IMG/VR virus record: IMGVR_UViG_3300031555_004524
Coordinates: 1 to 64,000 of that record
Strand: one strand, 5' to 3'
Source: a virus
Lineage: Duplodnaviria; Caudoviricetes
DNA: 64,000 nucleotides
The notes beneath the pieces were generated by a model. The model was not told the DNA's origin. It ran no database searches and worked only from the letters and a program-made list of their open reading frames with translations. Position 1 is the stretch's first letter; each line of letters opens with the position of its first letter. The translations under genes and the position numbers were made by a program. This document shows, in pieces, positions 41,690 to 64,000 of this stretch.

Positions 41690-43285
41690 TCATTCTATTT
41701 TATGAAATAATTTAATTGGTCTATCTGGATCAATTTTATTAAATAGTCTAATAAGATTAGGTTTATTTCGTTCTTCCATTATATCCTTATATTTAGCATG
41801 TAATTCTGGCATAGATAAATTAATTTCAGAACAACTTGTAGCGTATTTTTTATATATAGGTTTTTTGGCATAATAATAATTTCTACAATGCGTAAAACCT
41901 TTATCTACACATTCTATACATATAGTATCATTATCTCGCGTTCTACCCAACAACTGTCTAGCTATAACTTCTGATTTAAAAGGTTCTGCTAACACTACAG
42001 TCATTTTCAATCCTTTTATATCAATTGCAGCTCCAGCAGATTTGGTTGTTGTTAGTATTATTCTTTTAGATAATGCTAATTGTTTATCTTCTTGGGAAAC
42101 TATTGAAGTATATATACCAATATCATTTTCTAATTCTTGGAAGTTTTCTATAAGCCATTGGTATACTGTCATTATTGCATTATTTGTTCCTATATATAGC
42201 ATAAACTTGTCACCAGGAAGTTTTGTTCTCTTTATTCCCATATTCATAATTACAGTTAATAATTTATAAAACTCTGGTTGTTTTACTACATAGTTTGTAT
42301 ATTTATTCCTATCCATTCCATACGTATTATTTCTACAATTACTTATATCCTGCGGAAGAGGATTGCTATTATACATAATTGCAAAATATGCAGTATGTGG
42401 GTCATTTTCTTCATCAAATAAATCTATAGCTGGAACATTTTTAAATGCAGCTTGATATATTTGATTTTCTCTCTGATTTGATTTAGCTGGTGTAGCTGTC
42501 AGATAATATGTTTTATATACATTGGTAAAGAAATCTATCATGCAAATATTATCAAAATCTAAATGAGCTTCATCATAGATCTTAATACCAATCTTTAAAT
42601 ATTCAAATAACTCTCCAACTTTTTCCCATCCATATGTGGACCCATAACTTTGTAAAGTATCGTGAGTTACTAAAAATAGTTTATATCGTTTTAATTTATC
42701 TTCAGTTAAATTTAATAATCTAAATATTGTTTTAGATCCTTCTATAATACAAATATCTTTTTCATTAATATTTGTATATTCAACTGTTCTATTTTTCCAC
42801 TGTTTTAACCAATCCACTGTATCGGTTATAACTATTCCTCTAATAGAAAAATATGCCAAAGTTGCTATAGTTATATACGTTTTGCCTTTTCCTGTAGGAA
42901 GGTTTATGGATAACTGAGATTTCAAAGCAGTATATCTATACTCTCCTTGACCAACAGAAAATCGTAATGCTTCTTTCTGAACTTCATCTCTAGGTAAAGT
43001 CTTTATATAAATATCATTAAAACACTGATATTTATAACATTTATTCTCTAAAATTGTAGCGTCTGCATTTAAGCATTTTTCGACAAACCAAATATCTATA
43101 CCTCTCGGGAGGTATAGTTTCTTATTTTTCTTATCATAATAGATTCCCATATAATAAAAACTATGAGTTACAGGATTATATAATTTGAAATTATTTTCCA
43201 ATTGTGTAGAATCTCCAAATTCATAATTATTTATTATAACTGCACTATTCGTAACTTCTATTTTATTCATAATATTTTTCTCCAC
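41690..43285 (-). CDS. Superfamily 2 (DEAH) helicase
   Basis: LPTGKGKT, DEAH, LTATP, RQLLGRTR. Confidence 0.92.
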   Translation of the reverse strand: MEKNIMNKIEVTNSAVIINNYEFGDSTQLENNFKLYNPVTHSFYYMGIYYDKKNKKLYLPRGIDIWFVEKCLNADATILENKCYKYQCFNDIYIKTLPRDEVQKEALRFSVGQGEYRYTALKSQLSINLPTGKGKTYITIATLAYFSIRGIVITDTVDWLKQWKNRTVEYTNINEKDICIIEGSKTIFRLLNLTEDKLKRYKLFLVTHDTLQSYGSTYGWEKVGELFEYLKIGIKIYDEAHLDFDNICMIDFFTNVYKTYYLTATPAKSNQRENQIYQAAFKNVPAIDLFDEENDPHTAYFAIMYNSNPLPQDISNCRNNTYGMDRNKYTNYVVKQPEFYKLLTVIMNMGIKRTKLPGDKFMLYIGTNNAIMTVYQWLIENFQELENDIGIYTSIVSQEDKQLALSKRIILTTTKSAGAAIDIKGLKMTVVLAEPFKSEVIARQLLGRTRDNDTICIECVDKGFTHCRNYYYAKKPIYKKYATSCSEINLSMPELHAKYKDIMEERNKPNLIRLFNKIDPDRPIKLFHKIE

Positions 43286-43367
43286 GATTTTTTTATCATG
43301 TATTACTATAAAGTTAATTATTTTGTCATATTTTACAGGGATAGTATAATACTATCCCCGAATATAT

Positions 43368-43502
43368 TTATTTTACTAAATGAAGAACTCCAGCTTCTAT
43401 TAAAATATTTTCTACTTCCATAATTATATCTGGATGTTTTTCTCTTACGTCTTTTATGCTAAGTTTACCTTGCATGATTTGTGTAGCTAAATAATCAGCC
43501 AT
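43368..43502 (-). CDS. 44-aa CD1375/XkdX-like small protein (not in ORF track)
   Basis: GGGAGG RBS; MADYLATQIMQGKLSIKDVREKHPDIIMEVENILIEAGVLHLVK; followed by a hairpin at 43338-43358. Confidence 0.75.
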   Translation of the reverse strand: MADYLATQIMQGKLSIKDVREKHPDIIMEVENILIEAGVLHLVK

Positions 43503-43527
43503 TCTTTTATCCTCCCTTTGCATGTTC

Positions 43528-43824
43528 TTATAATTTACCATTCATTATTGATTCATTCAATAAATTCTCTATAGAATCTAATCTATCAGTTACACTTAAT
43601 GGTCTAGCTTCATATGTATAATAAACTTCTTTAGTTTTTCTATTATATCTAGGAACGGCAATACGCCCTTTAATTTGTTCTGGTTTTGGAATTTCTCTTA
43701 CAAAAAATCCACTCTCCAGTAATTCTTCTTTAGTTAATCCTAATCCATGTTTAGGATCAAATGGAACTCTGTGCATTAACGTTACAACGTCATCTTTTCC
43801 AACTTTAATATATATATCAGTCAT
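43528..43824 (-). CDS. XkdW-like tail-fibre assembly protein
   Basis: H.VPFDPKHGLG.TKEEL..G..V.EIP.PE...G....RYN..EVYY.YE.RP pattern; paired with the XkdX-like gene. Confidence 0.6.
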   Translation of the reverse strand: MTDIYIKVGKDDVVTLMHRVPFDPKHGLGLTKEELLESGFFVREIPKPEQIKGRIAVPRYNRKTKEVYYTYEARPLSVTDRLDSIENLLNESIMNGKL

Positions 43825-43931
43825 CTTTCAATCACTCCTTTGTAAAGATATTATGATTATTACAATGTTGCGTTTATCATTTTTTCACATCCTTATAATA
43901 TATTCTTTTAAAAAGAAAGGAGTATGTGTGA

Positions 43932-44171
43932 ATGAAAAACAAGAATAAGAAAGAAAATATGTTTCAAGATATTACACTCACTATAGCAGTCATAATAGCA
44001 TGTTGCATAATGGGGCAAATATACAATGAAGATTTAAATTTTCTACATATTTATACTGCAAAAGACTATTTCTTATATTCGTGTGGATTATTTATAATAA
44101 TCAAAATTGTATATAATACTGTAATGCATATTCATCGAGCTTTGGTTAATTCAGGAGACAATAAAGGGTAG
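43932..44171 (+). CDS. Small two-TM membrane protein
   Basis: AAGGAG RBS; late promoter at 43886-43897. Confidence 0.65.
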   Translation: MKNKNKKENMFQDITLTIAVIIACCIMGQIYNEDLNFLHIYTAKDYFLYSCGLFIIIKIVYNTVMHIHRALVNSGDNKG

Positions 44172-44191
44172 ACTAATAATAGTCTACCCTT
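44164..44191. terminator. Terminator between convergent genes
   Basis: AAGGGTAGACTA/TAGTCTACCCTT stem. Confidence 0.8.
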
Positions 44192-44202
44192 ACATTTTTA
44201 TT

Positions 44203-46347
44203 TTATAAACTAATTATATTTGTATAATTTATTGTATTTTTACCCATCTTATTAATACCACAAGATTCAATTGGGAAGTTAGATATCGAATCATTTATAA
44301 TTGTAGTATAATCAATAAATTCTTTAATCCAATCTGGAGTTTCCACATCTGTTGGAATAGATATTGCTGTTATTTCACCTTGACCAATTTTCTTTTTAGC
44401 TTTATCTCTTACATCATCTGTGCCAAATTTTTGAATTTCTGGGTTTCTCAATACTGCTAAAACTTTTTCATAAGTTTCTGGATAAGTTTCTTTAATTCTA
44501 TCAATATTTTTTTCATTGATAATAACCTTAACAATATCTACAGTATTTCTAGTTGATAAATCTATTGCCTCTAAATCTTCATCTCTGGTCATATTCCATA
44601 CAACTGCAGCTTTTACACCTTGAATTCTCATCGGATCTTCATAATTTGATAATGATTTAATTGCTGCTGGTTTATAGAATTCTTTCTTTCCTGCTCGTAA
44701 AGATTCGTATATCTGTTTTTCAAATATAGCTAAATCTTTTATAATTTGAAGTTGATTAATTTCTCTTGTATTTAAAACGTCTTCATATAGAATACGTTTT
44801 AACTCTTCTCTAGATCTAGCGTTTAATGTAGATTTGTTTATAGGCAATCCCTTAATGTCCAATGCAGTTGACAATCCATCTGGAATCATTTTTCCTTCTT
44901 GGATTTCCTGTTTAGATGCATAATTCTTTTTATTATTTGTCAATAATACTCTATAAAATAAGAACTCATTCTTACTAATTATAAGACATTCTTTATCTCC
45001 TCTATATGAATGAGTTTGTTTTGTATATGAAATCATATATTCATTTACCAATATACCACACACATATGACATTATATTGATAATAGAATATCTCAAACCA
45101 TCCTCTGCAATTATCTTATTAGGCTTAATTGCTCTTTTAATCTCTATAATTTCATCATTATAAAAATCATAATCCAATACAGTTTCTACCTTTTCAGTAC
45201 ACTGCTCTCCTTCCATATATGATACTGGGTCTGTTTCGACTTGAGTAATTGGGAATGGAATTCCTTTAACTTTATTTAATACATATCTATACCATCCATC
45301 CATAGATACAATAGCACTATCAGTATCTGATAACGCTGCTACATTTTTAATCATAAATTCATTTCTATCTATTCTGTCGATAATCTGATAATTATAGAAT
45401 ACATACTCTCTAATCAATTCTGTAAACGTATCTAGCTCAACTTTTATTTCTTTTGGCGGATGATTAGGGTCCATATATGGAGCTTCTAATCTATTTAAAA
45501 TATAAATTAATGCATTTGTAATTGATTTATTATCGCAAAATGCGATTAAGTTATTTTTATAATATATTCTATTTATATCTTCTTGGGAGAGTTTTGAAAT
45601 TATTTCCCAAATAATATTTAAATCTTTCATATCAGGAACCCATTTCAATTCTCCTCTACGGAAATCTCCGATAGTATATACTAATTTAGTAAAACATTCT
45701 TCATGTGTAATATTTCTATCTAATATATCTCTATCATCGAACTTTCGATCATTTTTCTCACTCAGCACGTTATTGATAAACACAACAATTTCATCTAATG
45801 ATGCAAACTTTACATTGTTTGCTAATATCATTTCAAAAAACATAATTACTGATGAAATCAATGATCTACCTTGCCCTGTAATTGATGCTGCCACGTTAAG
45901 ATTATAGAAAATACTACTCCATTTTCCTAATGCCCCATATATACTATTACAGTCCTGTTTATCAAGTAACTGCAAAATATTATATTTTGCAAATTCATCT
46001 GTTCCTTTAGGATATTTAAACATCTCAGCTTTATGCACTCCACGCAAATCCATGAATTCTTTAATCATGTCCATCAATGGATTAGGTACAGTTCCATGTT
46101 TTCTAAACAAAACTCCCCAAGAAGTACATATTGGCTCTCTAGACAATATGCAATTTGTGAGATCTTTCAAAGTCATCTCAGCATTTGTATTTTTATAACT
46201 ATTATGCACATTAATAGTTGTATTTCTTTCCCTATTTGCAACAGACCAATCCAATACTGAATCAAATTCATCTGCATGCAACCCTGGATATATGAATTTC
46301 GTCATTTTATACATAACGTCTCTATATTTTTTAGTTATCATATCCAT
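44203..46347 (-). CDS. Split family-B DNA polymerase, subunit with motifs B and C
   Basis: KQDCNSIYG (motif B), SDTDS (motif C), KKNYA; motif A absent. AAGGAG supports ATG 46347. Confidence 0.9.
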   Translation of the reverse strand: MDMITKKYRDVMYKMTKFIYPGLHADEFDSVLDWSVANRERNTTINVHNSYKNTNAEMTLKDLTNCILSREPICTSWGVLFRKHGTVPNPLMDMIKEFMDLRGVHKAEMFKYPKGTDEFAKYNILQLLDKQDCNSIYGALGKWSSIFYNLNVAASITGQGRSLISSVIMFFEMILANNVKFASLDEIVVFINNVLSEKNDRKFDDRDILDRNITHEECFTKLVYTIGDFRRGELKWVPDMKDLNIIWEIISKLSQEDINRIYYKNNLIAFCDNKSITNALIYILNRLEAPYMDPNHPPKEIKVELDTFTELIREYVFYNYQIIDRIDRNEFMIKNVAALSDTDSAIVSMDGWYRYVLNKVKGIPFPITQVETDPVSYMEGEQCTEKVETVLDYDFYNDEIIEIKRAIKPNKIIAEDGLRYSIINIMSYVCGILVNEYMISYTKQTHSYRGDKECLIISKNEFLFYRVLLTNNKKNYASKQEIQEGKMIPDGLSTALDIKGLPINKSTLNARSREELKRILYEDVLNTREINQLQIIKDLAIFEKQIYESLRAGKKEFYKPAAIKSLSNYEDPMRIQGVKAAVVWNMTRDEDLEAIDLSTRNTVDIVKVIINEKNIDRIKETYPETYEKVLAVLRNPEIQKFGTDDVRDKAKKKIGQGEITAISIPTDVETPDWIKEFIDYTTIINDSISNFPIESCGINKMGKNTINYTNIISL

Positions 46348-46525
46348 TATAAATATGGCTCCTTTCATCATGTATGATCACTTTAGACTTTTATATATTA
46401 GTTGTAGTTGATGTATTTTTTGATTTATATTACTAATAATTTAACATGTATATAAAAATACTAATGATTAAAATATGACATGTCATAGTATTATATATTT
46501 CGAAATATAAAGGAGGACTTTAATC

Positions 46526-46996
46526 ATGGGAATGTTTACAGGAATTGGTAGCGTAAACGAATCAATTGAACAGATGTTCAGCGATCCTAATAGAGTAATG
46601 GAGCTTTTTATCGTAGACGAAGTTAGTCAGCTTCCAGATGAGCTCGTACATGAATTTTGTAAAGAAGGTGGAGTTGGTCAGCAGTTAGTTGCAGAAGGAA
46701 AACTCCGTAAGAAAACATTAGTTCGTCTCAGCAAGAAAGATGACTTAGCTAGACGTGAAACTATGATTGCTATGCAGCTCGCTAAAGAACATAACGATCC
46801 ACTTTGGAAGAAGTTTATGATCAATACTAAAAAGCGTAATGAACTTAAAGCAGCTATGCTTAAAAAGTATGGAACAAAAGCAACTAGAGGAGCTAAACAG
46901 GCACAGCAGATGTTCCTTAAAGGTGGAGCAAAGAAAACTGGAATTCTTCCAAAAGATTTCCAGCGTAGTGTTAAAAATGATGAAAATAGAAAATAA
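46526..46996 (+). CDS. Basic internal head (DNA-binding-like) protein
   Basis: SVNE|S site, K/R-rich C-terminal half, high-expression codons, late promoter at 46443-46454. Confidence 0.6.
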   Translation: MGMFTGIGSVNESIEQMFSDPNRVMELFIVDEVSQLPDELVHEFCKEGGVGQQLVAEGKLRKKTLVRLSKKDDLARRETMIAMQLAKEHNDPLWKKFMINTKKRNELKAAMLKKYGTKATRGAKQAQQMFLKGGAKKTGILPKDFQRSVKNDENRK

Positions 46997-47014
46997 GGTA
47001 TTAAACATATAATT

Positions 47015-47189
47015 GATGGACCAGCACTGTCCATACAACCAAAAAAAACGCTCATTTTGGTGTATTTTGTACTTTCTATTTTCATTTTTTCGTTAGTCGG
47101 AAAATATCTTTTGTCCTTTGTAAATTTTTAATTGTACGGAAACAACAGTGAATTACACGTAGTATCATTTAGATGCTACGTGTAACTTC
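47015..47189 (+). ncRNA. Candidate late small RNA or structured 3' UTR
   Basis: AACA-N6-TG at 47004-47015; two 5' hairpins, a U-rich middle, and a long stem at 47150-47189 whose G.U pair works only on the + strand. Confidence 0.4.
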
Positions 47190-47200
47190 ATGTCTAATTA

Positions 47201-47216
47201 TATATTATATATATGA
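47201..47216 (+). promoter_or_regulatory. Early-type promoter of RNAP beta'
   Basis: TATATTAT-ATATA-TGA. Confidence 0.6.
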
Positions 47217-47277
47217 TAAGTTGAAAATAACTATATTTTTAACTTTATAATAATTTATGAAAAAGGAGAGAAAAATA

Positions 47278-49377
47278 ATGAACACACAAATATTCTATGA
47301 TGAATCGACAGCATTACAGAATTATCAGAATTATGGTCCATATGTACAGTTAGTTCAATATGGTCAAATTGAAGTATTTGCTAAAGATTTTACTAGAGAA
47401 AATATTGAGTATCATATTCAGTGCATTGAAAATATATTTGCAGATGGAATTGAAACTCAACGAGTTAGACATATGAAAGTAATGGTACATTTTCCAGATT
47501 CAGTTAGTCTGAATCTGACTATTTTTGATTATTTCTTTAATATTATCTTCTGGATACTACCACTTTCTGTTGGGGCTAATATTACTTCATCAGATTTATT
47601 CTTTGAAGAGAATTTTACACAGGGAGGAATCAAAAATTATATTGATGAGTTATTTTTAGATAGGTATAGAACAACTGTACCTAATATAAACTTAAATAAT
47701 ATTATAGATGAAATGATGTTTCAGATTAGAAAAGTTGATAGATTTTCTAAATATTTCTTAAATACTATCAATAATGAAGACACTATTGCGCTAATGGATG
47801 CAAATCCAGAATTTGACGCTTTGATGCATACTAATATAGCCAATGTGCCATTAGATCAAGTTAGAGATTATGGTATGGATATGACAAATAGAATGATAGA
47901 TATTATTAGAGAAACAGATCATTGTATGGCTAATGCATTTAATTGTGGGCAGGGTATTAATAAGAAACAGTTCAAAGAGTTCATGGTTAATATTGGTACT
48001 AAACCTGATGGTAAAGGCGGATTGTTCAATGGTGCAATCAATCAGTCTTATGTAAATGGAGGATTAAATAGAGTATTATATGACTTCATGGATGCAACTG
48101 TATCTAGAGAGGCAGAAATTATTAAGAAAGATAACGTTGGAAGCTCTGGGCATTTATCTCGATTAATGGGATTAAATAACCAGAGTACTAAATTACATTT
48201 AGATCCAACATATTCTTGCCATACCAAGAATCTTGTTGAAATTTATTTAAAAGATTCTAAACTGATAGATAAGTATAAGAATAGATGGTATAGATTTCAT
48301 CCAGATGGTCCAGAGTATAAAATGAGCTCCAGTCCATCAAAATATGATTCTCATCTTATTGGTCAAACTGTATATTTCAGAAGCCCAATGACTTGCGAAT
48401 CAAATGCTAAAGGTCATGGTATTTGTTATAAATGCTATGGGGATTTGGCATATGTAAATGCAGATATTAATATAGGTAAAATGGCGGCAGAAATACTTTG
48501 TTCAATATTAACACAGAAGTTATTATCTGCAAAGCATCTCTTACAGTCTGATGCTAAAGCTACACATTGGGTTCAGGAATTTTCAGATCTTTGTGAAGTA
48601 TCATTCAATATTATATCTATTAAAAATGATTTAGATTTAATGAATAAATATACTTTATTGATTTATCCAGAATCTATTCAGCAGGAGAATGAAGAAGATG
48701 ATTTCGAATACAATGATTATATTGATTATTTCGAAGTAGAATATCCATCTGGAGAAATTAAACAAATCTTCAATATGGATGACGACACTAACCAGAAAGG
48801 TCCAATTTATTTATCAAATGATTTAATAGAATATCTTCAAAGAATACCAGATCCAGGAGAAGAACCATATCGTATTTCATTTGATAAGATAAAAGATATA
48901 AGTTTATTCTTAATGAAAATTTCTAATAATGAAATTTCCAAAACATTGGATCAGTTAAAAGACTTAGTAAATAAATTATCTAGTATTCAGAATAAAACTT
49001 ATAGCCAGTGGATTCAAGAATTAGTTGAAATTACAGAACACGGTGGAGTGAATATAGATGCTGTTCATCTCGAAGTAATATTATCTAATCAGATACGAAA
49101 TATAAATGATATATTAGATAATCCAAACTGGGAATATCCAAACGAACCGTATCAGTTACTTACACTTGGCAAAGCATTAGCAAATCATCCAAGTATTGTA
49201 ACTACTCTAGTATATGAGGATTTACCTAAAGTATTAATTGAGCCTACTTCATATAGAAAGAGAAAAGCTGCTGAAATCGATTTATTCTTTATGGAACAAC
49301 CACAAGAAGAAATGAATGTAACAATTCAAGAAGAACATGTTGATGGATTAAAACCATTATTCTATAAGATAGAATAG
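47278..49377 (+). CDS. Multisubunit RNA polymerase beta' C-terminal subunit (probably nvRNAP)
   Basis: NIGTKPDGKG, bridge helix ..VGSSGHLSR, Zn site RSPMTC..ICYKCYG, trigger loop TQKLLSAKH; preceded by an early promoter. AAGGAG supports ATG 47278. Confidence 0.9.
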   Translation: MNTQIFYDESTALQNYQNYGPYVQLVQYGQIEVFAKDFTRENIEYHIQCIENIFADGIETQRVRHMKVMVHFPDSVSLNLTIFDYFFNIIFWILPLSVGANITSSDLFFEENFTQGGIKNYIDELFLDRYRTTVPNINLNNIIDEMMFQIRKVDRFSKYFLNTINNEDTIALMDANPEFDALMHTNIANVPLDQVRDYGMDMTNRMIDIIRETDHCMANAFNCGQGINKKQFKEFMVNIGTKPDGKGGLFNGAINQSYVNGGLNRVLYDFMDATVSREAEIIKKDNVGSSGHLSRLMGLNNQSTKLHLDPTYSCHTKNLVEIYLKDSKLIDKYKNRWYRFHPDGPEYKMSSSPSKYDSHLIGQTVYFRSPMTCESNAKGHGICYKCYGDLAYVNADINIGKMAAEILCSILTQKLLSAKHLLQSDAKATHWVQEFSDLCEVSFNIISIKNDLDLMNKYTLLIYPESIQQENEEDDFEYNDYIDYFEVEYPSGEIKQIFNMDDDTNQKGPIYLSNDLIEYLQRIPDPGEEPYRISFDKIKDISLFLMKISNNEISKTLDQLKDLVNKLSSIQNKTYSQWIQELVEITEHGGVNIDAVHLEVILSNQIRNINDILDNPNWEYPNEPYQLLTLGKALANHPSIVTTLVYEDLPKVLIEPTSYRKRKAAEIDLFFMEQPQEEMNVTIQEEHVDGLKPLFYKIE

Positions 49378-49414
49378 AAAAAATGGATTTTGTAAAAATT
49401 CGTATTTGTGATAG

Positions 49415-49430
49415 TATATTATAATAGTGA
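49415..49430 (+). promoter_or_regulatory. Early-type promoter of the small membrane protein
   Basis: TATATTAT-AATAG-TGA. Confidence 0.6.
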
Positions 49431-49493
49431 TATAATACAATATTGTATCAATACACATACACAAAAATATACAATACGAAGGAGAAATGAATC

Positions 49494-55725: not shown

Positions 55726-56499
55726 ATGAATGAAACTATTCCTAGTTGGTTAAAATTAAAAGATCGTGCCTTATATTATAATGACACAGGAGAATTTTGT
55801 TTCTTTGTTCCAGAGATATTCTTCGAAAGAAATCATGCTATATCAGAAGGTGAATTTATTCATCTTATAGGCATGCTAAATTATACAAGATTAAAACCAG
55901 GAAGTAATGAGTATACAAAAGATGTAAAATCATTTAACTTTCCTACAGCTTTTACTACCAAACCAGGTAGAGTTGAAAAGGTAAAGAATCTTAAATTAAT
56001 AGATTCTCAACCTGGAGAGGATTATCGAATTCTCCATTACGAAAACAATGGAGATGATCAAATTGTTGTATCTATAGAAGTTCCACAGGATATTGCAAAT
56101 GTAGAAGAATTTATGCAAATTTGTTTTACTACAGGAAAGATTCCTAAAAATATTAGATATGATGAATTACAAAATTATCTATATGATAATATGAAACTTA
56201 ATGGAAATTCTTACGGTATTACTGCACAGATTTATGGTATAGTATGGTCGGAAGTATGTAGAGATCCTAACAATCTAGAAGTGCCGTATAGATTATCAAA
56301 GAAATTTGATGAAAAGAATCCTACTAATTATCAATCTATTTCTATTAAAGAGGTACCTAAAATTATATCTCCATTTACAGCTGTTACAACGGAGAACTGG
56401 GATGAGGCTGTAATATCAGCATGTATTATCCCACCAGATCAGATTAAAGGTACACCTATGGAAAAAATTATGACTGGAACTGGATTTGATGATGAATAA
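55726..56499 (+). CDS. Conserved protein resembling the extreme C-terminal segment of RNAP beta' (candidate virion RNAP piece)
   Basis: GITAQIYGIVWSEVCRD..YQSISIKEVPKIISPFTAVTTENWDEAV aligns by eye with the C-terminal part of 47278-49377. Confidence 0.5.
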   Translation: MNETIPSWLKLKDRALYYNDTGEFCFFVPEIFFERNHAISEGEFIHLIGMLNYTRLKPGSNEYTKDVKSFNFPTAFTTKPGRVEKVKNLKLIDSQPGEDYRILHYENNGDDQIVVSIEVPQDIANVEEFMQICFTTGKIPKNIRYDELQNYLYDNMKLNGNSYGITAQIYGIVWSEVCRDPNNLEVPYRLSKKFDEKNPTNYQSISIKEVPKIISPFTAVTTENWDEAVISACIIPPDQIKGTPMEKIMTGTGFDDE

Positions 56500-56510
56500 A
56501 AAACACAATT

Positions 56511-56540
56511 AAGGGTAAGAGATTAATTTCTCTTACCCTT
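56511..56540 (+). terminator. Intrinsic terminator
   Basis: AAGGGTAAGAGA/TCTCTTACCCTT stem followed by T-rich sequence. Confidence 0.8.
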
Positions 56541-56577
56541 TCTTTATATATAAAATCCGCTAAAAGTGTCCCCTGAT

Positions 56578-56589
56578 AACATATCAATA
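56578..56589 (+). promoter_or_regulatory. Late nvRNAP promoter (sheath/tube)
   Basis: AACA-TATCAA-TA. Confidence 0.7.
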
Positions 56590-56655
56590 AATTACATTTG
56601 GATTGAAAATGTATTTAAATTTTTATTAATAAAATTATAAAGGAGGACACAAAAA

Positions 56656-58791
56656 ATGAGAAAACCCACTACTACATTTAAATGGGTTGACAACAGTGGT
56701 GCTTTAGTTAACGCTCCTGTATTGGAAGTTAGACCACTGTGTTTGACAGCTTCTTCATTTGATAAAGGCCCAGAAGGGTTAATGACTGTGTATGGCGATA
56801 ATTTCTATAAGTTATTTGGTTCAAATATTTCATATGTAAAACATGGACAGCCAGCTATTCAGGCAGCTAATATCATTGATAACGGTGGAGAATTATTAAT
56901 CAAACGTGTTGTTGCTCCAGATTCACTCCTTGCAAACCTTATTCTCACAGCTTCTGTTTCTCAGGCTAGAGTAGAAAAAGTTGATGAACTTACAGGAAAA
57001 CCTGTATATGTCGATGCTGTTACTGGAAGCGAAACATTAGAAGCTACTACAGAAGATGGAACAAGCAATGAAAGAGCAATGATCAATACTGCAGTTATCA
57101 AGTATGATGTAGCAAACGTTACAGATGCTAAAACATTAGCAGATGTAGTTACTCAGGCTAAAACTCTTTCAACTGAAAGAGAATCTAGTCTTGATATCGA
57201 AGGTGCAGGAGATCCATCTACATGGATAACTGTAAATGCAACTCTTGAGGATGGCGGAGATGCTCCAGATATGAGTGTTTCTGTAGGTTATTCTGCGCTT
57301 AACGAAAATGCAGCATTAGTTGGCGAAGCAGAAGTAGGAACAGCAGAACTTCTTGCTGAAGTAACTGAAACATTATTTGATATCGGAACTATCCTCATTG
57401 ATAACAACTTTAATGTATTTGAAGTTGTAGCTGATAATAAATTAGTATTACTTGGTAATACATCAGCAGAATTTACATACCCAATCCTTGTTGTTGCTGA
57501 CAATGGTAGAGGTGTAAGTGATAAGAGATTCAATATCACATGCGATTATACAATTAGTAAATCAGTACACTTTGCTATGTATCAGCTTAACTACTTAGGA
57601 GTACAGGATTTCGATGCTGAATTTACAAGATTCTCTGCAAATCCAGATCAGATTTACAATAACGTAAGCTATTCTCTTAAAATGGCTGCTAAATCTGCAA
57701 TGCAGCTTCAGGCACAGGATCTTGAAGCAGAATTAGAAGCATTTATTGCTAAAGTTTCAGAATTCTCTGGTATCGCACAGGATGAACTCCTCGGCATGGA
57801 TATCTTATTTGGACGTAATCTTAAAGGTATGCCTGTGCAGCAGATTACAATCGATGAAACAGGTTACCAGTTAGATGCTGAATATGGTATGATGCTTCAG
57901 GGTGGTTCTTATGGTTCATTCGGAGATGCTCCATTCGGAACAGAAGCATACTCAGAAGAACTCGTTGCATTCTTCTCAGGAGAATCTGATGATACTATCT
58001 ATGATAGAGATAGATGGAAAATTGAAGTGTGCTTAGATGCTAACTATCCACTTGAAGTTAAAGAAGCTATTTCTCAGCTTGCTACAGATAGAGAAGACTT
58101 CTTCTTCTTCAGAGATTATGGTCTTGGAAATACAACAATGGATGTTATTAAGCTCATGAGAGATTCAATGAATATCAATAATAAATTCATGGGCGATTAT
58201 TGTACATCATATGATGTAATTGATAAGTTTACAAGAAAACAGATTCCTGTAACTATCATGTACTCATTAGCAAGATTAATAATACCACATTTAAATTCAA
58301 ATAGAAATGCTCCACTTATGGGTATTTTATATGGATTTACAATTCCAGAAGCAATTGAAGGAACTGTAAACTTCATTCCAAAAGATACACCAAAAGTTGA
58401 TCAGAAAACTATGTGTATCGAAGAACAGATTAACTATGCTAGCTATGTAAACGGAGTTCTTACTCTTGAAACTCAGATCACAGCTCAGGAAAAAGAAACT
58501 CAGTGTTCACATATCAACAATATCCTTACAGTTCAGGAAACAATGCGTGACATTAGAACACTTTGTCCAAAACTTAGAGGATCATTTATTGATGCTAGTG
58601 ATGGGCTTGAAAAATATGCTCAGAAAGTTAAAGATGTTATTGATAAACATAGGGAAGAATACAATAGTATTGAATTTGCATGGACTGCAGATGAAGTTAT
58701 GTTAGCTCATAAGATCTTTGATGCAGCTATCAAAGTAACATTCAAGAACTATGTTGGCTCAGAAGAATTTACTATCTACACATTAGACTAA
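56656..58791 (+). CDS. Tail sheath protein
   Basis: KHGQPAIQA..LLIKRVV, DNGRG, LDANYPLEVKEAI..L...RED; high-expression codons; followed by the tube gene. Confidence 0.85.
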   Translation: MRKPTTTFKWVDNSGALVNAPVLEVRPLCLTASSFDKGPEGLMTVYGDNFYKLFGSNISYVKHGQPAIQAANIIDNGGELLIKRVVAPDSLLANLILTASVSQARVEKVDELTGKPVYVDAVTGSETLEATTEDGTSNERAMINTAVIKYDVANVTDAKTLADVVTQAKTLSTERESSLDIEGAGDPSTWITVNATLEDGGDAPDMSVSVGYSALNENAALVGEAEVGTAELLAEVTETLFDIGTILIDNNFNVFEVVADNKLVLLGNTSAEFTYPILVVADNGRGVSDKRFNITCDYTISKSVHFAMYQLNYLGVQDFDAEFTRFSANPDQIYNNVSYSLKMAAKSAMQLQAQDLEAELEAFIAKVSEFSGIAQDELLGMDILFGRNLKGMPVQQITIDETGYQLDAEYGMMLQGGSYGSFGDAPFGTEAYSEELVAFFSGESDDTIYDRDRWKIEVCLDANYPLEVKEAISQLATDREDFFFFRDYGLGNTTMDVIKLMRDSMNINNKFMGDYCTSYDVIDKFTRKQIPVTIMYSLARLIIPHLNSNRNAPLMGILYGFTIPEAIEGTVNFIPKDTPKVDQKTMCIEEQINYASYVNGVLTLETQITAQEKETQCSHINNILTVQETMRDIRTLCPKLRGSFIDASDGLEKYAQKVKDVIDKHREEYNSIEFAWTADEVMLAHKIFDAAIKVTFKNYVGSEEFTIYTLD

Positions 58792-58807
58792 TTAAGGAGG
58801 GTAATAT

Positions 58808-59698
58808 ATGAATACTTATAAGAAGAAACCGTATTCGATTGCCTCTTACACTAAAATGCGTGGGGTAATCGACTTCAGTAATGCTAGTCAGTTCAATATG
58901 TACGAATCTGGATATCAGTTCTTAACTATTATCTCTAGACCACGTTATATTGAAATGCTTGCCGAAGAAGATGCTGAAGTTGCTAACTCATTAAATCTCT
59001 TCTGCTGGATTCTTGAAAACGAATTCCGTGGATTAGATGGTATCGAAAATATCACAGTAGACTCTCTTGAATTTACAGATAATATTTCTACATTAAATAC
59101 TATCGGTAAAGTAAATCAGCAGTCTGCTTCAGAAATTACAATGACATTTACAGAAAGATCTGGTGCAGCTATGACTGGATTTATTGATTACTTCTTAAGA
59201 GGTATCAAAGATCCACGTACACAGGCTAAAACATACCATGGTCTTATTAAGAAAGGTAAATTAGCTGCAGGATTTGAAAATGAAGTATTCCATCTGTTAT
59301 ACATGGTAACAGACAATACTACATTAGGTCTTGAAAAAGCTTACCTTCTTGCAAGTGCTTGGCCTTCAACAGCACAGCTTGACATCTATAATGGTGAAAA
59401 AGGTACTATTGAAAAGAAAGAAATTTCTGTACCTTGGCAGTGCTTCCCAATCGATGGAGATGAAGTTGATAAGAGAGCTTTACGTATGCTCGCATACATC
59501 AGTGAAGATGATGCAGTTGCTAACGCTAACTCTGTTAACGGATCTTCTAAGAACGCTCTCGCAGTGGCTAAAGAAATTAAGAGTTACTCAAATAACCAGG
59601 TTATCAATGACTCTAATACATACCAGTATGCTGGTCTTAGCCTCATCGAAAACGTTTACAAAGATGCAGTTGTTGAACAGACAAGACGTACTGTATAA
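58808..59698 (+). CDS. Tail tube protein
   Basis: Directly after the sheath gene; EFRGLDGI, ERSG, GIKDPRT, LYMVTDNT motifs recalled from AR9/phiKZ-like tubes. Confidence 0.75.
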   Translation: MNTYKKKPYSIASYTKMRGVIDFSNASQFNMYESGYQFLTIISRPRYIEMLAEEDAEVANSLNLFCWILENEFRGLDGIENITVDSLEFTDNISTLNTIGKVNQQSASEITMTFTERSGAAMTGFIDYFLRGIKDPRTQAKTYHGLIKKGKLAAGFENEVFHLLYMVTDNTTLGLEKAYLLASAWPSTAQLDIYNGEKGTIEKKEISVPWQCFPIDGDEVDKRALRMLAYISEDDAVANANSVNGSSKNALAVAKEIKSYSNNQVINDSNTYQYAGLSLIENVYKDAVVEQTRRTV

Positions 59699-59710
59699 TG
59701 AAATAAATAT

Positions 59711-59739
59711 TAGGAGTGTACCAAATCGGTACACTCCTA
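59711..59739. terminator. Bidirectional terminator
   Basis: TAGGAGTGTACC/GGTACACTCCTA stem between convergent genes. Confidence 0.85.
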
Positions 59740-59748
59740 TTTTTATAT

Positions 59749-62076
59749 TTACATATCCATATCTCCACCAGAGTTTCCTCCACCACCACTATCCGTAGTA
59801 GTGTTATTATTATCTGAAACTGATACTTCCAATTCAACTGCTTCTTTTAATCTATCTACTAGACTAGATTTTACATAAGATGCAAGTAAATGTCTATTCA
59901 TTTTTCTAATAAACTTAGCTCTTTTTACATCTACATTTGGATCTGAATCTCCTTCATATTCATATGTAGCAATAGCTGTAGAATAATCATTAGCATTCTG
60001 TAAAAGCTGAGAAGTATTTGTAAGTGTTAAAAACATTGGAGGTGGTAACTGAGCTTCAACTTCAACTGGTTCTTCTTCATATTCGCATGCATATATTTTA
60101 GTTAATAATTTGCTTAAGAATGTTTCTGTTATTCCTTGTCTATGAAATACAGTTCTTAATACTTTAATACTTGTTGATGTGAACTGAGTTGCAAAATCTG
60201 GAGAATTTCTGTTCTGAACCAATTCTATATTAACTCCAGTACTGTTTACTGCCATTTCTTCTAGCATATTATAAAGATCAGTATCTATATCAAATTGCTG
60301 TCCTGGCATAACTTCAAATTGCACTGGTGCATCCCCAGAAGGTCCCACTGGAATTACATAATCATTATATCTGCCAGTAATATTAAGAATATTATTGAGA
60401 TTCTGAATCTGTCTAATTCCAAAGTTACCCTTTTTAATCTGGTTAATTACATTTAATAATGTTTGAGATATATTTGTATCGATAGTCTGTTTTACATAAT
60501 ATACTCTCTTATCCTGACCTCTTGTTAATTTACCAAGGGTATCAGTAATATATAAACAAGATAACAATTTTGCTGGAATTAATCCATCTAAGCAATCTGA
60601 AATTCCTCTATGTGTATCTGGATCTATATTGTATGCTAATCTCAAGACATCTTCTTCTGGTAAGAATGAAATTCTAACGTCTAATAATCCTCGTTTAGCA
60701 TTATAAATATCATTATGAAGGAGAATTGCATAGATTTCTTTTGTAAGATCCTGATTTGCATTTATGAATCGCTTATTCAGCTCTTTAGAGATAGTTGCAG
60801 AAAGCTGTCTAATCATATCATTAACTTTTTTCTCTTCTACTGCATTTCTTGTAACTTGCTGCATTCCTTCTAATCCAGTAGTAGCTGTAGAAGTTGCAGT
60901 AGTTATAGAACCATCACTATACTGTGTTGACATATTTGCATATAAATCATTAGCAAGCTGATCATCTGTAAATTCTAAATAATAATATCCCAAACATACG
61001 TCATCGTCAACATAGAGAGGTATAACATTTTCTCTTTTTAATGCTTTGATAACTGCACCTCTAACTTTCAATTCACTAGGAGATACTGTTCTGGATGAAT
61101 TATGTAATAACCCATCAGCAGAAGTATCATCCCTTAATTCCTTAGGAACTTCTAATTCATTTGGAATGGTTATATCAAGTTTTGTTTTCTTATGAATACT
61201 GCTCGCTTCATTCAATGCTTCATTTAAGCTATAAGTTCCTTGCTTTACGATATTATTAGAAATCTTAGCAGATTCAATACAAGATTTCAATGTGCAAGAT
61301 AAATCAAATTCAACATTAACAGAATATGCATGTTTTTTCTGATCTGCTGTAGCTTTATCATCTAATATACCATTTTCATTAAGTAAATAATTTCCATATG
61401 TGGATGCTGTATTGGCTTTATTTGTAAGTAATTTAGCAATAGCAACTTTATATGGAACTACGTATACAAACTGTTCTCCGTATTTTGAAGTATTCATATA
61501 CCACATATTCAGCTTATTTTGAATATCATATTTCTTAATGAGCTTTCCCATTCTCATTTCAAATGAAGCCATATCTGAATCTGCAGAATATGCAGGAGTT
61601 TTTGCACTAATAATATCTTTGGAGAAACTATCTGCAGATAATACTGCATCTCTCATTAATAATAATGCTTCCATCATTTTGGTACAATATTTAAGTACCA
61701 TATCTATTTCATTATCTAAATCTTTAATCCATTTATTTCCAGTATAGCTAGCTAAAATTTCATCTGTTAAAGGATTATTATCAAATAAATTCTTTATAGC
61801 ATCTACTGTATCTTTAGAGTTTACAGTATTTCTTAAATGAGTTCTAGCATATAATTGTGAAACTTTGGATGTATCATTGTTTTTATTACGACGAACAATC
61901 GCTGCAATTTTGTCTTCAATTCCATCAGCGATATTATTCAAATCTTTGGAATTGCTTCTATCGGAATAATATGTATTTCTATACACATTATCCATTCCAC
62001 TACCTAAACCACCTAATAATTGATTAATCCTTCCGGTATTAAATCTTCTAGGAGATTTTTGTGATCTTTCGGCCAT
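59749..62076 (-). CDS. Portal protein
   Basis: SKYGEQFVY, LTRGQDKRVYYV, DYVIP..FEVMPG (T4 gp20-like pattern); late promoter at 62110-62121. Confidence 0.8.
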   Translation of the reverse strand: MAERSQKSPRRFNTGRINQLLGGLGSGMDNVYRNTYYSDRSNSKDLNNIADGIEDKIAAIVRRNKNNDTSKVSQLYARTHLRNTVNSKDTVDAIKNLFDNNPLTDEILASYTGNKWIKDLDNEIDMVLKYCTKMMEALLLMRDAVLSADSFSKDIISAKTPAYSADSDMASFEMRMGKLIKKYDIQNKLNMWYMNTSKYGEQFVYVVPYKVAIAKLLTNKANTASTYGNYLLNENGILDDKATADQKKHAYSVNVEFDLSCTLKSCIESAKISNNIVKQGTYSLNEALNEASSIHKKTKLDITIPNELEVPKELRDDTSADGLLHNSSRTVSPSELKVRGAVIKALKRENVIPLYVDDDVCLGYYYLEFTDDQLANDLYANMSTQYSDGSITTATSTATTGLEGMQQVTRNAVEEKKVNDMIRQLSATISKELNKRFINANQDLTKEIYAILLHNDIYNAKRGLLDVRISFLPEEDVLRLAYNIDPDTHRGISDCLDGLIPAKLLSCLYITDTLGKLTRGQDKRVYYVKQTIDTNISQTLLNVINQIKKGNFGIRQIQNLNNILNITGRYNDYVIPVGPSGDAPVQFEVMPGQQFDIDTDLYNMLEEMAVNSTGVNIELVQNRNSPDFATQFTSTSIKVLRTVFHRQGITETFLSKLLTKIYACEYEEEPVEVEAQLPPPMFLTLTNTSQLLQNANDYSTAIATYEYEGDSDPNVDVKRAKFIRKMNRHLLASYVKSSLVDRLKEAVELEVSVSDNNNTTTDSGGGGNSGGDMDM

Positions 62077-62109
62077 GTTTCATCCGTCCTTCCTTCTAGA
62101 TTTTTCGCT

Positions 62110-62121
62110 TATCTGAATGTT
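62110..62121 (-). promoter_or_regulatory. Late nvRNAP promoter (portal)
   Basis: AACA-TTCAGA-TA. Confidence 0.7.
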
Positions 62122-62143
62122 TCGCGGGTAAAATACGATACCT

Positions 62144-62665
62144 CTAAATATTGAGGTATCGTATATATTCACGTATTTGATAATTTTTTTTCTGAATAAT
62201 AAATTCTGATATGAATGAATGTTCTCCTGCTGAATATATCGATAAGTGTATTGTATCAGATTTATTCAATGGATGTAATGATGAAAAATTACTCATTACA
62301 TATTCTTCATATTTAAACATTTTCGCTCCATCACCAGCTTTAATATTTCTAGAAGTATTCACAAATGATTCAAACGATGTAATATCTTTTTCATATATTA
62401 TAGGTGGTGTATCTGTCAATATCATCACTACGTTTAATAAATATCTAAATTTATTTATTAATATTTCTGGAGTCATACATTCAGCAAAATCTGGTTTCGA
62501 TCTACCATCTAATTCTGCCATTGTACCTAGATACTCTTCATCTGAATTTGTATATATTATACTAAGGGTTCCTAAATTTACATCGGAACCCAAAATATAT
62601 CGTGGTGTTATCCATATATAATCACGTTTCATACTTTTAGCCATTTTTATAATATTTGCATCCAT
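62144..62665 (-). CDS. Hypothetical protein
   Basis: 173-aa ORF directly after the polymerase subunit; GGAGG RBS. Confidence 0.75.
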   Translation of the reverse strand: MDANIIKMAKSMKRDYIWITPRYILGSDVNLGTLSIIYTNSDEEYLGTMAELDGRSKPDFAECMTPEILINKFRYLLNVVMILTDTPPIIYEKDITSFESFVNTSRNIKAGDGAKMFKYEEYVMSNFSSLHPLNKSDTIHLSIYSAGEHSFISEFIIQKKNYQIREYIRYLNI

Positions 62666-62671
62666 TTTAAA

Positions 62672-64000
62672 TTACCCCTCCATTATTTTTTTCATATAAG
62701 GTTCCATATCTATTTCTGGTGTTATTTTATGGAATAATATATATGGTTCGTTTGGATCTATTTTATGGAATAATTTAATTGGCCCTGGAGTTCCTTCAAA
62801 TTTATGGAATAATTTTCTTGGATCTCTATCAATATTGAAACTTGGCATTTGTATATATCTAAAATAATATTCAATATCATCTAAGATTTGTCTGAAGTTT
62901 GCATATCCCAACCACCTATGACAGAATAATATAATATTCTGAGAGGTTAAATCTTCTATATACGATCCTCCTCTATCATATTTTTCATTACCAAATGGAT
63001 TTTCATATATATGAACTTTTTCTGGAATAAGAATTTTTCCTATCTGGGTATTAGGTGCCATATTATGCTCCCTTGCAATGCTAGGATAAAGTGATTTAAA
63101 GTCAAAGTCTACCAAATTATCCATAATATTCAATATCTGACCTAGATTATTTATCTTAGAAAAGTCACTATTATTTCTAGGATCAGTTACAATTGCACCA
63201 GCAAATTTTTCATTCTTTGTATCTTCTTCTCCGTAATCATCATTAACTTTAGTTGTAGCTGAGTTTCTATTATATTTATTGACATTATTTCCTATAATAA
63301 ATCCTCTAGCTGCAAATTCTTTTGTAGCTCGATTTGCAAGGTATACGGTTTGTCTATGAGCCTTATCATATCTAGTATTATTCATGATGCATTTCCCACA
63401 TACATAGTTTATATCTTGCACTTCTTCCTCTATACAATTCTGAACAATTGTATCCATGATATTATAGAATACAAATGTTTTATAATCCAAGTATGGTAAT
63501 TTTGAGATATTTGTGGTTATATGGCTATAATTTAATTTTCTAACTTTTGCTATAATACTACCAGCTGTATCCAATTTAAAGTTTGGAAATGCAGCTTGAC
63601 CTTTTCTTCTTGATGCAAAATGAATTAACTGGTCTAAATATACAGTGTGTGATGATATAGTATATTTATCACCTCTTAATGAATATTCATTTTTATGCTC
63701 TTCATCTATAAAATATTTTGCAACTTTTTCATTAGGTTTAAATGATGGATGACACATTATATCCGCAGGATTATAACCCAATGCAATTAATCTTTCATAT
63801 AAATATGGAACGTCGAATGCCATATTCCAAGCTAATAAGAAATCTGGTTCTTCTGAATTTATAATATCAAATAAATCTCTTATTAATTCTATTTCATAAT
63901 CGTAAAAGAAAAATTCAAATTCTAATTTATCTATATTAAATTTCTTAGCCCTTTCAATTCCGCCTACATTATCAATTATAAAATCTTGTAACTCTTTAAA
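62672..64000 (-). CDS. Split family-B DNA polymerase, exonuclease + motif A subunit (5' truncated by window)
   Basis: Frame open to the window edge; ExoII LAWNMAFD, ExoIII YNIMD, motif A DFDFKSLYPS. Confidence 0.9.
   Translation of the reverse strand, partial: FKELQDFIIDNVGGIERAKKFNIDKLEFEFFFYDYEIELIRDLFDIINSEEPDFLLAWNMAFDVPYLYERLIALGYNPADIMCHPSFKPNEKVAKYFIDEEHKNEYSLRGDKYTISSHTVYLDQLIHFASRRKGQAAFPNFKLDTAGSIIAKVRKLNYSHITTNISKLPYLDYKTFVFYNIMDTIVQNCIEEEVQDINYVCGKCIMNNTRYDKAHRQTVYLANRATKEFAARGFIIGNNVNKYNRNSATTKVNDDYGEEDTKNEKFAGAIVTDPRNNSDFSKINNLGQILNIMDNLVDFDFKSLYPSIAREHNMAPNTQIGKILIPEKVHIYENPFGNEKYDRGGSYIEDLTSQNIILFCHRWLGYANFRQILDDIEYYFRYIQMPSFNIDRDPRKLFHKFEGTPGPIKLFHKIDPNEPYILFHKITPEIDMEPYMKKIMEG

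Follow-up and report, generated by a model that had tools for sequence, protein, structure and literature searches.

The window (the whole 64,000-nucleotide stretch of DNA analysed) is the first 64 kb of the complete 248-kb genome, with 29% GC, of an uncultured AR9-like jumbo phage from the gut. Three of its genes, coding for an SF2 DNA/RNA helicase, the exonuclease half of the PolB DNA polymerase (PolB-exo), and a subunit of RNA polymerase (RNAP), were described in the first-pass annotation as sharing a C-terminal peptide, and each of these tails was read back from the sequence as described. The helicase ends with ..LIRLFNKIDPDRPIKLFHKIE, and the copies in PolB-exo read KLFHKF, KLFHKI, and ILFHKI (Table 1). 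Within the long ORFs of the window, LF[HYN]K[IF] was confined to these three tails. One point is corrected: the RNAP protein is the C-terminal half of beta-prime (beta-prime-C) of the non-virion polymerase. The catalytic half of PolB ends with NYTNIISL, which is kept clade-wide and in AR9.

Table 1. Tag carriers and related genes (window positions unless marked as genome positions)
Feature	Position	Strand	Remarks
Fifth non-virion RNAP subunit	25..2421 (exons 25-777, 1873-2421)	+	AR9 g226-like
HNH_3/NUMOD4 endonuclease ORF	969-1604		Splits the fifth RNAP subunit gene
Fifth RNAP subunit, N-terminal exon	genome 247829-248149		Across the contig junction; tag MIPLIRKIE
249-aa protein	40303..41052	-	Degenerate N-terminal tag MGVKLIHQI, about 41026-41043
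SF2 DNA/RNA helicase	41690..43270	-	Orthologue of AR9 g156
SF2 helicase C-terminal tags (n = 2)	RLFNKI 41732-41746; KLFHKI 41696-41710	-
PolB catalytic half	44203..46371	-	No tag in this genome
Non-virion RNAP beta-prime, C-terminal half, 706 aa	47257..49377	+	Orthologue of AR9 g154
RNAP beta-prime-C tag PLFYKIE	49357-49371	+	Single C-terminal copy; tail LKPLFYKIE
173-aa protein	62144..62665	-	No tag; directly after PolB-exo; putative receptor/hub, best candidate
PolB exonuclease half	62672..64000 in window; gene to genome position 64633	-
PolB-exo tandem tags (3)	62798-62812, 62759-62773, 62723-62737	-	Followed by conserved end
Whirly/PUR-fold ssDNA-binding protein (Whirly-like SSB)	genome 239740-240546		Disordered linker, acidic tip, no tag

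The core of the tag is five residues, L-F-x-K-(I/V/M), placed on flexible protein ends. A scan of the proteome and of relatives had been proposed as a check. Genome-wide, 8 proteins together had 12 matches to the strict pattern LFxK[IVMF] within their last 50 residues, where 0.89 were expected; 0 of 2000 residue shuffles gave as many, and the 58,633 internal residues contained only 4. In the relatives, local tags were found. The back-translated pattern gave 5 matches against 0.62 expected. The 25/26 nt identity reported between 41694-41719 and 62757-62782, each encoding PIKLFHKI, was reproduced. Codons differ synonymously between copies (TTA/CTA/TTG/CTG, TTT/TTC, AAA/AAG, ATA/ATT, and CAT/CAC), indicating selection on the protein, and copies lie on both strands. 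L-F-x-K-(I/V/M) was thus shown to be a short linear motif, selected at the protein level, with approximately 18 DNA-acting carriers. An AT-rich genome might produce such copies by chance, through codon bias, or as a DNA/RNA-level element, as the near-identical pair and the GC content might suggest, but this is already refuted by the synonymous differences at each position, the use of both strands, the enrichment above all shuffles, and the relatives of other GC content that bear other peptides at equal protein positions.

The approximately 18 carriers, a count including degenerate copies at N-termini and in linkers, all act on phage DNA in copying, repair, or transcription. They include both helicases (SF2 and DnaB), PolB-exo, the ligase, three nucleases, small zinc-ribbon proteins, and 4 of the 5 non-virion RNAP polypeptides (beta-prime-C, beta-N, beta-C, and the fifth subunit). 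Structural proteins had been noted as free of the peptide; this was borne out, and other virion proteins, the virion RNAP, and metabolic proteins, including those of nucleotide metabolism, likewise had 0 tags. UvsX, gyrase, RecD, primase, and SSB were also without it. No paper describing the tag system was found in the literature.

Recoding of the tag among related phages

Eight complete genomes (this phage and seven relatives, designated by G numbers where needed) and three further loci were compared. In all seven relatives, the equivalent proteins carried, at equivalent places, a different peptide that was uniform within each genome (MVxF, VVxRV, MCxRV, FMxRD, and others). The carriers in the three loci likewise bore different tags. 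For example, the SF2 helicase orthologues in G3-G6 end with each genome's local tag, and the G3 orthologue of the 249-aa protein, for which no Pfam family was found, begins with MQPMVTF, the tag of G3. Terminus similarity across carrier families was 14.42 within genomes versus 12.24 between them in a permutation test (z = 11.6, with 0 of 2000 permutations as extreme), and ten non-carrier families used as the control gave z = 1.2. This recoding was seen between phages with core proteins 45–55% identical. The local tag was also found on HNH homing endonucleases, 3 of 4 in G6 and 2 of 3 in G5; those tagged in these two genomes are intron endonucleases. The cultured relatives AR9, MarsHill, BpSp, and phiR1-37 were without the tag.

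A terminal or linker motif on unrelated proteins that changes in step between lineages is the general pattern of a docking motif with one co-evolving reader, and this pattern was observed here. Because the peptide on these proteins takes a different form in each related phage, the tag appears, from these comparisons, to be a co-evolving docking or address tag. The core of the first-pass proposal, a docking or targeting tag with a common partner, is strongly supported since the tag changes in step on the same proteins across eight genomes; the partner may be a clamp, SSB, scaffold, or import factor. The covariation also argues that all tags of one phage would, very probably, be read by one common, phage-encoded, co-evolving partner.

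A hub on phage DNA as candidate reader

We tentatively propose, at slightly less than an even chance, that the reader may be a hub on phage DNA or at replication forks, a "toolbelt" like the T4 sliding clamp. Such a hub would bring the DNA-processing enzymes (polymerase, helicases, ligase, and nucleases) together with the late, non-virion RNA polymerase on phage DNA, and this gathering would link replication, repair, and late transcription to one another. Avidity would be set by the number of tags per particle, i.e., 3 on PolB-exo, 6 on a DnaB hexamer, and approximately 5 on the RNA polymerase. A role for copy number had been put forward earlier, and PolB-exo, with 1582 homologous clusters, fits this idea in that three copies are kept in more than 100 protein clusters while their sequences are lineage-specific; the three copies suggest a trimeric or multi-site reader. 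The carrier list resembles client lists of clamps or SSB, which is consistent with a hub; the tagging of the non-virion but not the virion RNAP favours the overall explanation given below. Against a hub, this tag is recoded between related phages, unlike clamp-binding motifs elsewhere, which stay conserved over vast distances. Taken together, a selected terminal tag, a common co-evolving reader, and a DNA-bound hub form what we consider the best explanation overall, with about equal chances of being right or wrong.

The clients of the gp45 sliding clamp in T4 and RB69 are the C-terminal tails of the gp43 polymerase and of the late-transcription proteins gp33 and gp55. The present system is similar in that one short terminal peptide is found on a polymerase, replication enzymes, and the late transcription machinery; PolB-exo shares its tag with RNAP beta-prime-C, beta-N, beta-C, and the fifth subunit, and the shared peptide would, as in T4, couple replication to late transcription. 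It differs in that the motif is unrelated in sequence to the T4 clamp tails, the carriers are more numerous (approximately 18, with DnaB, nucleases, homing endonucleases, and four RNAP polypeptides among them), tags occur also at N-termini and in linkers, and the tag is recoded between close relatives. The T4 analogy drawn by the first-pass annotation therefore holds as logic but not as membership, there being no recognisable clamp or clamp loader and a motif unlike known clamp-binding motifs. The bacterial beta-clamp motif is QL[SD]LF and the PIP box is Qxx[LIM]xx[FY][FY]; in 19 copies of the tag, the residue preceding LF is K, R, P, or I, and there is no conserved Gln. The host beta-clamp was ruled out as reader by reasoning, because its pocket and motif are conserved and the tag is lineage-private.

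With profiles of beta-clamp, PCNA, and gp45 (PF02916, PF00705, and PF00712), nothing matched at E<=1 in G000, G001, G003, G004, and G006; these sequence-profile searches detected the control genomes. For the clamp loader, the only match to PF13177 was 11.7 bits, under the 27-bit cut-off, and classical AAA ATPases scored above theirs in just 3 of 5 genomes. Nor did PHROG and Pfam scans covering approximately 85 proteins turn up a clamp, a clamp loader, an SSB family, or a shell.

The gene directly following PolB-exo encodes the best candidate for the putative receptor or hub. It occupies the equivalent position, frequently with an overlap of the PolB stop codon, in 9 of 10 tag-bearing genomes or loci, and no homologue was present at the equivalent spot in the tagless cultured relatives. 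The proteins are small (173-235 aa), fast-evolving (17-45% identity), and clade-specific; profile comparisons revealed no similarity to PDB chains, a phage collection, T4 gp45, AR9 g131, or MarsHill gp139.

Also considered as readers, for the PolB-exo tail (residues 596-653), were the Whirly-SSB core, a 306-aa tubulin-coupled protein, and the zinc-ribbon domain encoded at 110515-111357. Three proteins were rejected: a 222-aa SSB-coupled gene as hub, because of a DxD HAD-like signature; the AAA ATPase beside the DHH gene (97704-98981), because it is not universal; and a 624-aa acidic protein (211980-213854), which is universal but lies among virion RNAP genes, matches no family, and is probably a virion protein. 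Tubulin was discarded as a carrier, its tail motif, [DS]FFxx-hydrophobic, being lineage-conserved and not tracking the local tag.

Bacterial SSB binds RecJ, RecQ, ExoI, Pol II, PriA, and others through its acidic C-terminal tip. The carriers here resemble that interactome in including a DHH/RecJ-like nuclease, an SF2 helicase, PolB, and other nucleases, but the polarity is reversed, with the peptide on the clients and not on SSB. The tip of the phage SSB, DD(I/L)E, is conserved across lineages and does not covary with the tags.

Alternative readings

It is possible, although we consider it unlikely, that the tag is a linear targeting signal, similar to a nuclear localisation signal (NLS) or an encapsulation peptide, by which all proteins needed at phage DNA enter a replication-transcription factory. 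A phage scaffold would build this factory, perhaps as a bounded compartment or as a condensate, and a lineage-private code would exclude foreign proteins. Cargo peptides of microcompartments and encapsulins and eukaryotic nuclear localisation signals are short, flexible N- or C-terminal extensions on functionally related cargo. The tag is likewise position-independent and sometimes present in multiple copies; unlike those widely conserved signals, however, it differs from lineage to lineage. Its occurrence at both termini and in linkers, the rapid recoding in step across carriers, the tagging of 4 of the 5 separately encoded non-virion RNAP polypeptides with none on virion RNAP, structural, or nucleotide-metabolism proteins, and the acquisition of the local tag by selfish HNH endonucleases (the G5 and G6 cases above) are in agreement with a targeting signal. 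The four tagged RNAP polypeptides, the tagged homing endonucleases, and the N-terminal and linker tags fit such an address label at least as well as the toolbelt. In addition, a tubulin/PhuZ-like protein is encoded in 8 of 8 genomes and lacking in AR9, and a possible scaffold, a zinc-ribbon protein containing a long disordered stretch rich in Q, P, and Y, was found in 7 of 8.

Chimalliviruses import equivalent protein classes species-specifically, choosing replication and recombination proteins and the non-virion RNAP, not virion RNAP or metabolic enzymes, in PicA import (PMC11087766). The present phages are similar in this choice, in species-specific selectivity, and in having tubulin. They differ in that no homologue of chimallin or PicA was found and the signal here would be a plain linear peptide; for chimallivirus import, no such signal has been identified, and recognition is thought to rely on surface patches (PMC11087766). 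Chimallin (phrog_4795) and PicA (phrog_3141, the phiKZ gp69 family) gave no match at E<=1 in G000-G002, while phrog_4795 recovered phiKZ gp54 at 1.8e-232 as the positive control. Also against an address label, AR9-like phages are described as being without a phage nucleus (PMC13282480; bioRxiv 10.1101/2023.02.24.529968), no shell or receptor candidate was found, and UvsX, gyrase, RecD, primase, and SSB are untagged and would therefore need another entry route. The more specific proposal, that the tag is a phage linear "nuclear localisation signal" letting replication, repair, and late-transcription proteins into a chimallin-independent replication compartment or condensate organised with the phage tubulin, is unlikely as well and, if anything, a shade less probable; selfish nucleases would in that case have copied the tag, and recoding would exclude host and rival-phage proteins.

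Recognition by an enzyme, with the tag acting as a degron for an AAA+ protease, a handle for a chaperonin, or a dock for a clade-specific kinase-like protein, is improbable. The tag is terminal, mixes basic and hydrophobic residues, and loosely recalls ClpX N-motif-1 (polar-hydrophobic-hydrophobic-basic-hydrophobic), and a GroEL-like protein and a protein-kinase-like protein (151114-152454) are present in 8 of 8 genomes. AR9, however, has a GroEL-like protein and no tags; a degron in up to three or more copies on all essential replication and transcription enzymes is implausible; and the conserved pockets of host proteases would not account for a lineage-private code.

Improbable too, and marginally more so, is a model with no separate receptor, in which tags bind each other as short strand-forming stickers and multivalent carriers form a network on phage DNA. 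The uniformity of tags within a genome would suit it, as would the multivalency of the machines: PolB-exo has 3 tags, a DnaB hexamer 6, and RNAP beta-C in G1 and G6 up to 4-6. However, five residues make a very short core for specific self-association, and in some lineages Pro or Gly lies inside the core. A membrane-binding amphipathic helix was rejected by reasoning, as it would not need an exact motif uniform across a genome and some lineages have Pro or Gly in the core.

Significance for jumbo phages

PIP boxes, SSB tips, and the clamp tails of T4 are known examples of shared docking peptides. The unusual feature in the present case is a tag spread through the proteome, on 18 to 30 proteins, and rewritten wholesale from one related phage to another. 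Should the finding hold, the tag would supply a simple sequence rule for listing all proteins that are directed to a phage's own DNA, those of unknown function and mobile nucleases among them, and a handle with which to fish out whatever organises replication and late transcription in a very large clade of uncultured gut jumbo phages. It would also provide a natural set of orthogonal peptide-receptor pairs, and protein sorting in msRNAP jumbo phages without a chimallin shell would become testable.

Tag-bearing proteins of the phage

The source contig is 248,149 bp long with 29% GC, the window being its first 64 kb, and the record is complete since its final 150 bp repeat the contig start. The phage is distantly related to Bacillus phage AR9/PBS1 (~30% protein identity), as judged from its multisubunit RNA polymerases (RNAPs) and the split of its PolB. 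Given a clear thymidylate synthase gene (phrog_160, 2e-80), the phage DNA may hold thymine or a derivative, in contrast to the uracil of AR9/PBS1.

The first-pass annotation had described a shared C-terminal peptide on a helicase, the exonuclease half of PolB (PolB-exo) and an RNAP subunit, and all three tails were found as described (see table). The stretches at 41694-41719 and 62757-62782, identical at 25/26 nt, both encode PIKLFHKI. Among the long ORFs of the window the motif was restricted to these three tails, and its back-translated pattern gave 5 matches versus 0.62 expected. Scanning of the full proteome (simple ORF call, 266 genes) found the strict form LFxK[IVMF] 12 times within the last 50 residues, in 8 proteins, and at 4 places among the 58,633 internal residues; with residues shuffled, the mean was 0.89 terminal matches, and none of 2000 shuffles attained 12. 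The structural proteins were untagged in this genome-wide scan, which bears out the earlier remark on them. Synonymous codons differ among the copies (Leu TTA/CTA/TTG/CTG, Phe TTT/TTC, Lys AAA/AAG, Ile ATA/ATT, His CAT/CAC) and carriers of the tag lie on both strands, indicating selection on the peptide rather than on the DNA.

Coordinates of tag-bearing proteins and other genes discussed (above 64,000, genome positions; L001 and L010 are fetched stretches with local coordinates)
Product	Position (strand)	Tag
Fifth non-virion RNAP subunit	1-2421 + L010:3829-4149	N-terminal, MIPLIRKIE at 247829, across contig junction
HNH_3/NUMOD4 endonuclease ORF	969-1604	
249-aa protein	40303-41052	N-terminal, KLIHQI
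SF2 helicase	41690-43270 (-)	C-terminal, 2 copies: RLFNKI, KLFHKI
PolB catalytic half (PolB-cat)	44203-46371 (-)	none
Non-virion RNAP beta-prime-C, 706 aa	47257-49377 (+)	C-terminal, PLFYKIE
173-aa protein	62144-62665 (-)	none
PolB-exo	62672 to beyond window end (-)	C-terminal, 3 copies: KLFHKF, KLFHKI, ILFHKI
316-aa protein	64747-65697	N-terminal, LIRLMTPI
Non-virion RNAP beta-N	71169-72956	C-terminal
216-aa protein	73109-73759	linker
Non-virion RNAP beta-C	79569-80000	C-terminal, 2 copies
Tubulin/PhuZ-like GTPase and 306-aa protein	85436-87519 (-)	
DHH phosphoesterase	99069-100091	C-terminal
Q/P/Y/M-rich zinc-ribbon protein	110515-111357 (-)	none
DnaB-like helicase	115989-117833	C-terminal
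Cas4-like exonuclease	122485-123216	C-terminal, weaker, ..LFTKREV
Thymidylate synthase	147720-148568	none
220-aa protein	150425-151087	C-terminal
Protein-kinase-like protein, 446 aa	151114-152454	none
Whirly/PUR-fold protein, 268 aa	239740-240546 (+)	none
Zinc-ribbon family, N-terminally tagged	L001:6582-6854	N-terminal
Two zinc-ribbon proteins		N-terminal, MKRLFHKI and MGKRLFTKL
SbcD		N-terminal, MIPLFTPI
145-aa protein		N-terminal, MGIPLMQKI
NAD ligase		linker, KRLFEKI, residue 115 of N-terminal extension

No tag was seen on any of the four virion RNAP orthologues, on thymidylate synthase or guanylate kinase, or on UvsX, gyrase A/B, RecD, primase, SbcC, RNase H, PolB-cat and SSB. Some of these could ride tagged partners: PolB-cat with PolB-exo, SbcC with SbcD, and primase with DnaB. 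The beta-C ORF is a 3′ exon downstream of a TnpB intron, and in relatives one ORF spans both exons in the alignment. For the fifth non-virion RNAP subunit (AR9 g226-like), the gene is broken by the contig junction and an endonuclease ORF; as this ORF interrupts the gene, it is probably intron-split, and its counterpart in the relative G1 is a single ORF of 559 aa.

Two further terminal peptides were observed. The N-terminally tagged zinc-ribbon family, with homologues in the fetched stretches L027 and L028, keeps a C-terminal (D/E)(Y/F)NPF, which may be a second docking motif. PolB-cat ends in ..NYTNI(I/V/L)x(L/F) in 8/8 genomes (..PTNILTF in AR9); this peptide does not co-vary with the tags and may be a contact with the exonuclease half or an accessory factor.

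Genome-specific tags in related phages

Searching metagenomes for PolB-exo homologues gave 1582 clusters. Of the best 120, whose tails were inspected, almost all bear at the C-terminus three hydrophobic motifs, short and in tandem, at a spacing of some 12-13 residues, and the motif is lineage-specific, with KLMIKV, RAFSSY, GLISPIEYY, MKPFQV and LIRGVHY among the examples. On three contigs around such homologues, neighbouring proteins bear the local version; one has LIRGVLYF on beta-N and the N-termini MLKRGIVY, MIRGVIY and MDLIKGITY.

The comparison covered seven IMG/VR relatives with complete or almost complete genomes (G1-G7), whose core proteins are 43-55% identical to those of this phage (G0). 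The scan of relatives that the first-pass annotation had proposed showed the same carrier families tagged, each genome with its own peptide: LFxKI in G0, PLF(E/R)x(I/V) and ..PLWE in G1, (K/P)MVxF(K) in G3, VVxRV or VIERV in G4, MCxRV or MVRVV in G5, (K)xFMxR(D) in G6 and VIxRV in G7. The internal ligase site matches the local code in 8/8 genomes. Common to many lineages is a core that reads hydrophobic-hydrophobic-any-basic-hydrophobic, often with K, R or P before it and D or E after it.

In an unsupervised test of ten carrier families, scored by the best match of 5-mers (BLOSUM62) when termini were compared across families, the within-genome value was 14.42 and the between-genome value 12.24 (z = 11.6; 0/2000 genome-label permutations as high), versus z = 1.2 for ten non-carrier families. 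The G6 pattern x-F-M-x-R had 21 terminal and 11 "internal" matches, most of the latter in tails or linkers of carrier families and the remainder in unidentified proteins. Intron-type HNH_3/NUMOD4 homing endonucleases also bear the local tag, 3/4 in G6 (MKTFMTR, MNVFMQR, MKSFMIR) and 2/3 in G5. In the cultured relatives AR9, Staphylococcus phage MarsHill, Bacillus phage BpSp and Yersinia phage phiR1-37, PolB-exo ends before the tagged extension, and no terminal peptide is common to the carriers' orthologues in AR9.

Candidates for a common binding partner

Uniformity within genomes and divergence between them, across more than 10 unrelated proteins, make it very likely that one common, phage-encoded and co-evolving partner (the reader) serves all tags of a phage. 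The logic is that of the clients of T4 gp45, but the phage differs from that system in clamp, loader and motif: in five genomes nothing matched the beta-clamp, PCNA or gp45 families at E<=1, no clamp-loader family rose above its cut-off, and only some of the genomes have classical AAA ATPases. Import in chimalliviruses selects the same protein classes, but the chimallin (phrog_4795) and PicA (phrog_3141) profiles had no match at E<=1 in G0-G2, the chimallin profile recovering phiKZ gp54 at 1.8e-232 as control. No linear import signal has been found in chimalliviruses (PMC11087766), and AR9-like phages are described as having neither chimallin nor a phage nucleus (PMC13282480; bioRxiv 10.1101/2023.02.24.529968).

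Proteins were filtered as reader candidates for being clade-universal, absent from AR9, non-carriers and probably not structural. Tubulin (PF00091, 37 bits), present in 8/8 genomes and lacking in AR9, passed; it is translationally coupled to a 306-aa helical partner, and its conserved tail, [DS]-F-F-x-x-hydrophobic, is independent of the local tag. Also listed was a Whirly/PUR-fold protein, found in 8/8 genomes and unnamed in the databases searched, whose linker is disordered and N/S/G-rich and whose acidic tip, ..DD(I/L)E.., is conserved. Its model (pLDDT 72; Foldseek probability 1.0 to PUR-alpha, Whirly and MRP1/2) suggests that it is probably a phage ssDNA-binding protein. The third, in the replication gene cluster and kept in 7/8 genomes, has a zinc ribbon and a helical domain followed by 100-200 disordered, low-complexity residues rich in Q/P/Y/M/G, and is a possible condensate-type scaffold. 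The fourth, a universal protein, combines a zinc ribbon with motifs like those of protein kinases (glycine-rich loop, VIKVA, D..N, DFP) and has a tail that is long, charged and disordered; its gene adjoins a tagged one. Separately, an SSB-family match in G7 (fetched stretch L189, ~genome 28450-29100) contains one in-frame TGA, for which a sequencing error, local recoding or the decay of the gene into a pseudogene might account; for that genome as a whole, code 4 is not favoured by gene-call statistics.

The untagged 173-aa product is encoded immediately after PolB-exo. Homologues of 148-235 aa, with 17-45% identity to it, occupy the same position in 9/10 tag-bearing genomes or loci, often overlapping the PolB stop codon. 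It had no match in PDB, the phage collection or T4 gp45, and no detectable relation to the same-position genes of the tagless AR9 and MarsHill.

Possible roles of the tag

We tentatively place first the possibility that the reader is a DNA-borne hub or toolbelt. In support, the carriers resemble client lists of clamps and SSBs, the polymerase has conserved its three tags, its gene is coupled to one that evolves fast, and T4 offers a case of late transcription coupled to replication. It is somewhat less probable that the tag acts as a label addressing proteins to a replication-transcription factory. For such a label speak its presence on four of the five separately encoded non-virion RNAP polypeptides, its placement independent of position in the protein, its acquisition by homing endonucleases, its lack on virion RNAP and metabolic enzymes, its rapid recoding, in contrast to clamp motifs, and the presence of tubulin. 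The DNA-borne hub is kept slightly ahead.

A full-text literature search returned no description of such a tag in jumbo phages. The tag system is a kind of shared docking or targeting peptide, unusual in its breadth and in its wholesale rewriting between lineages.
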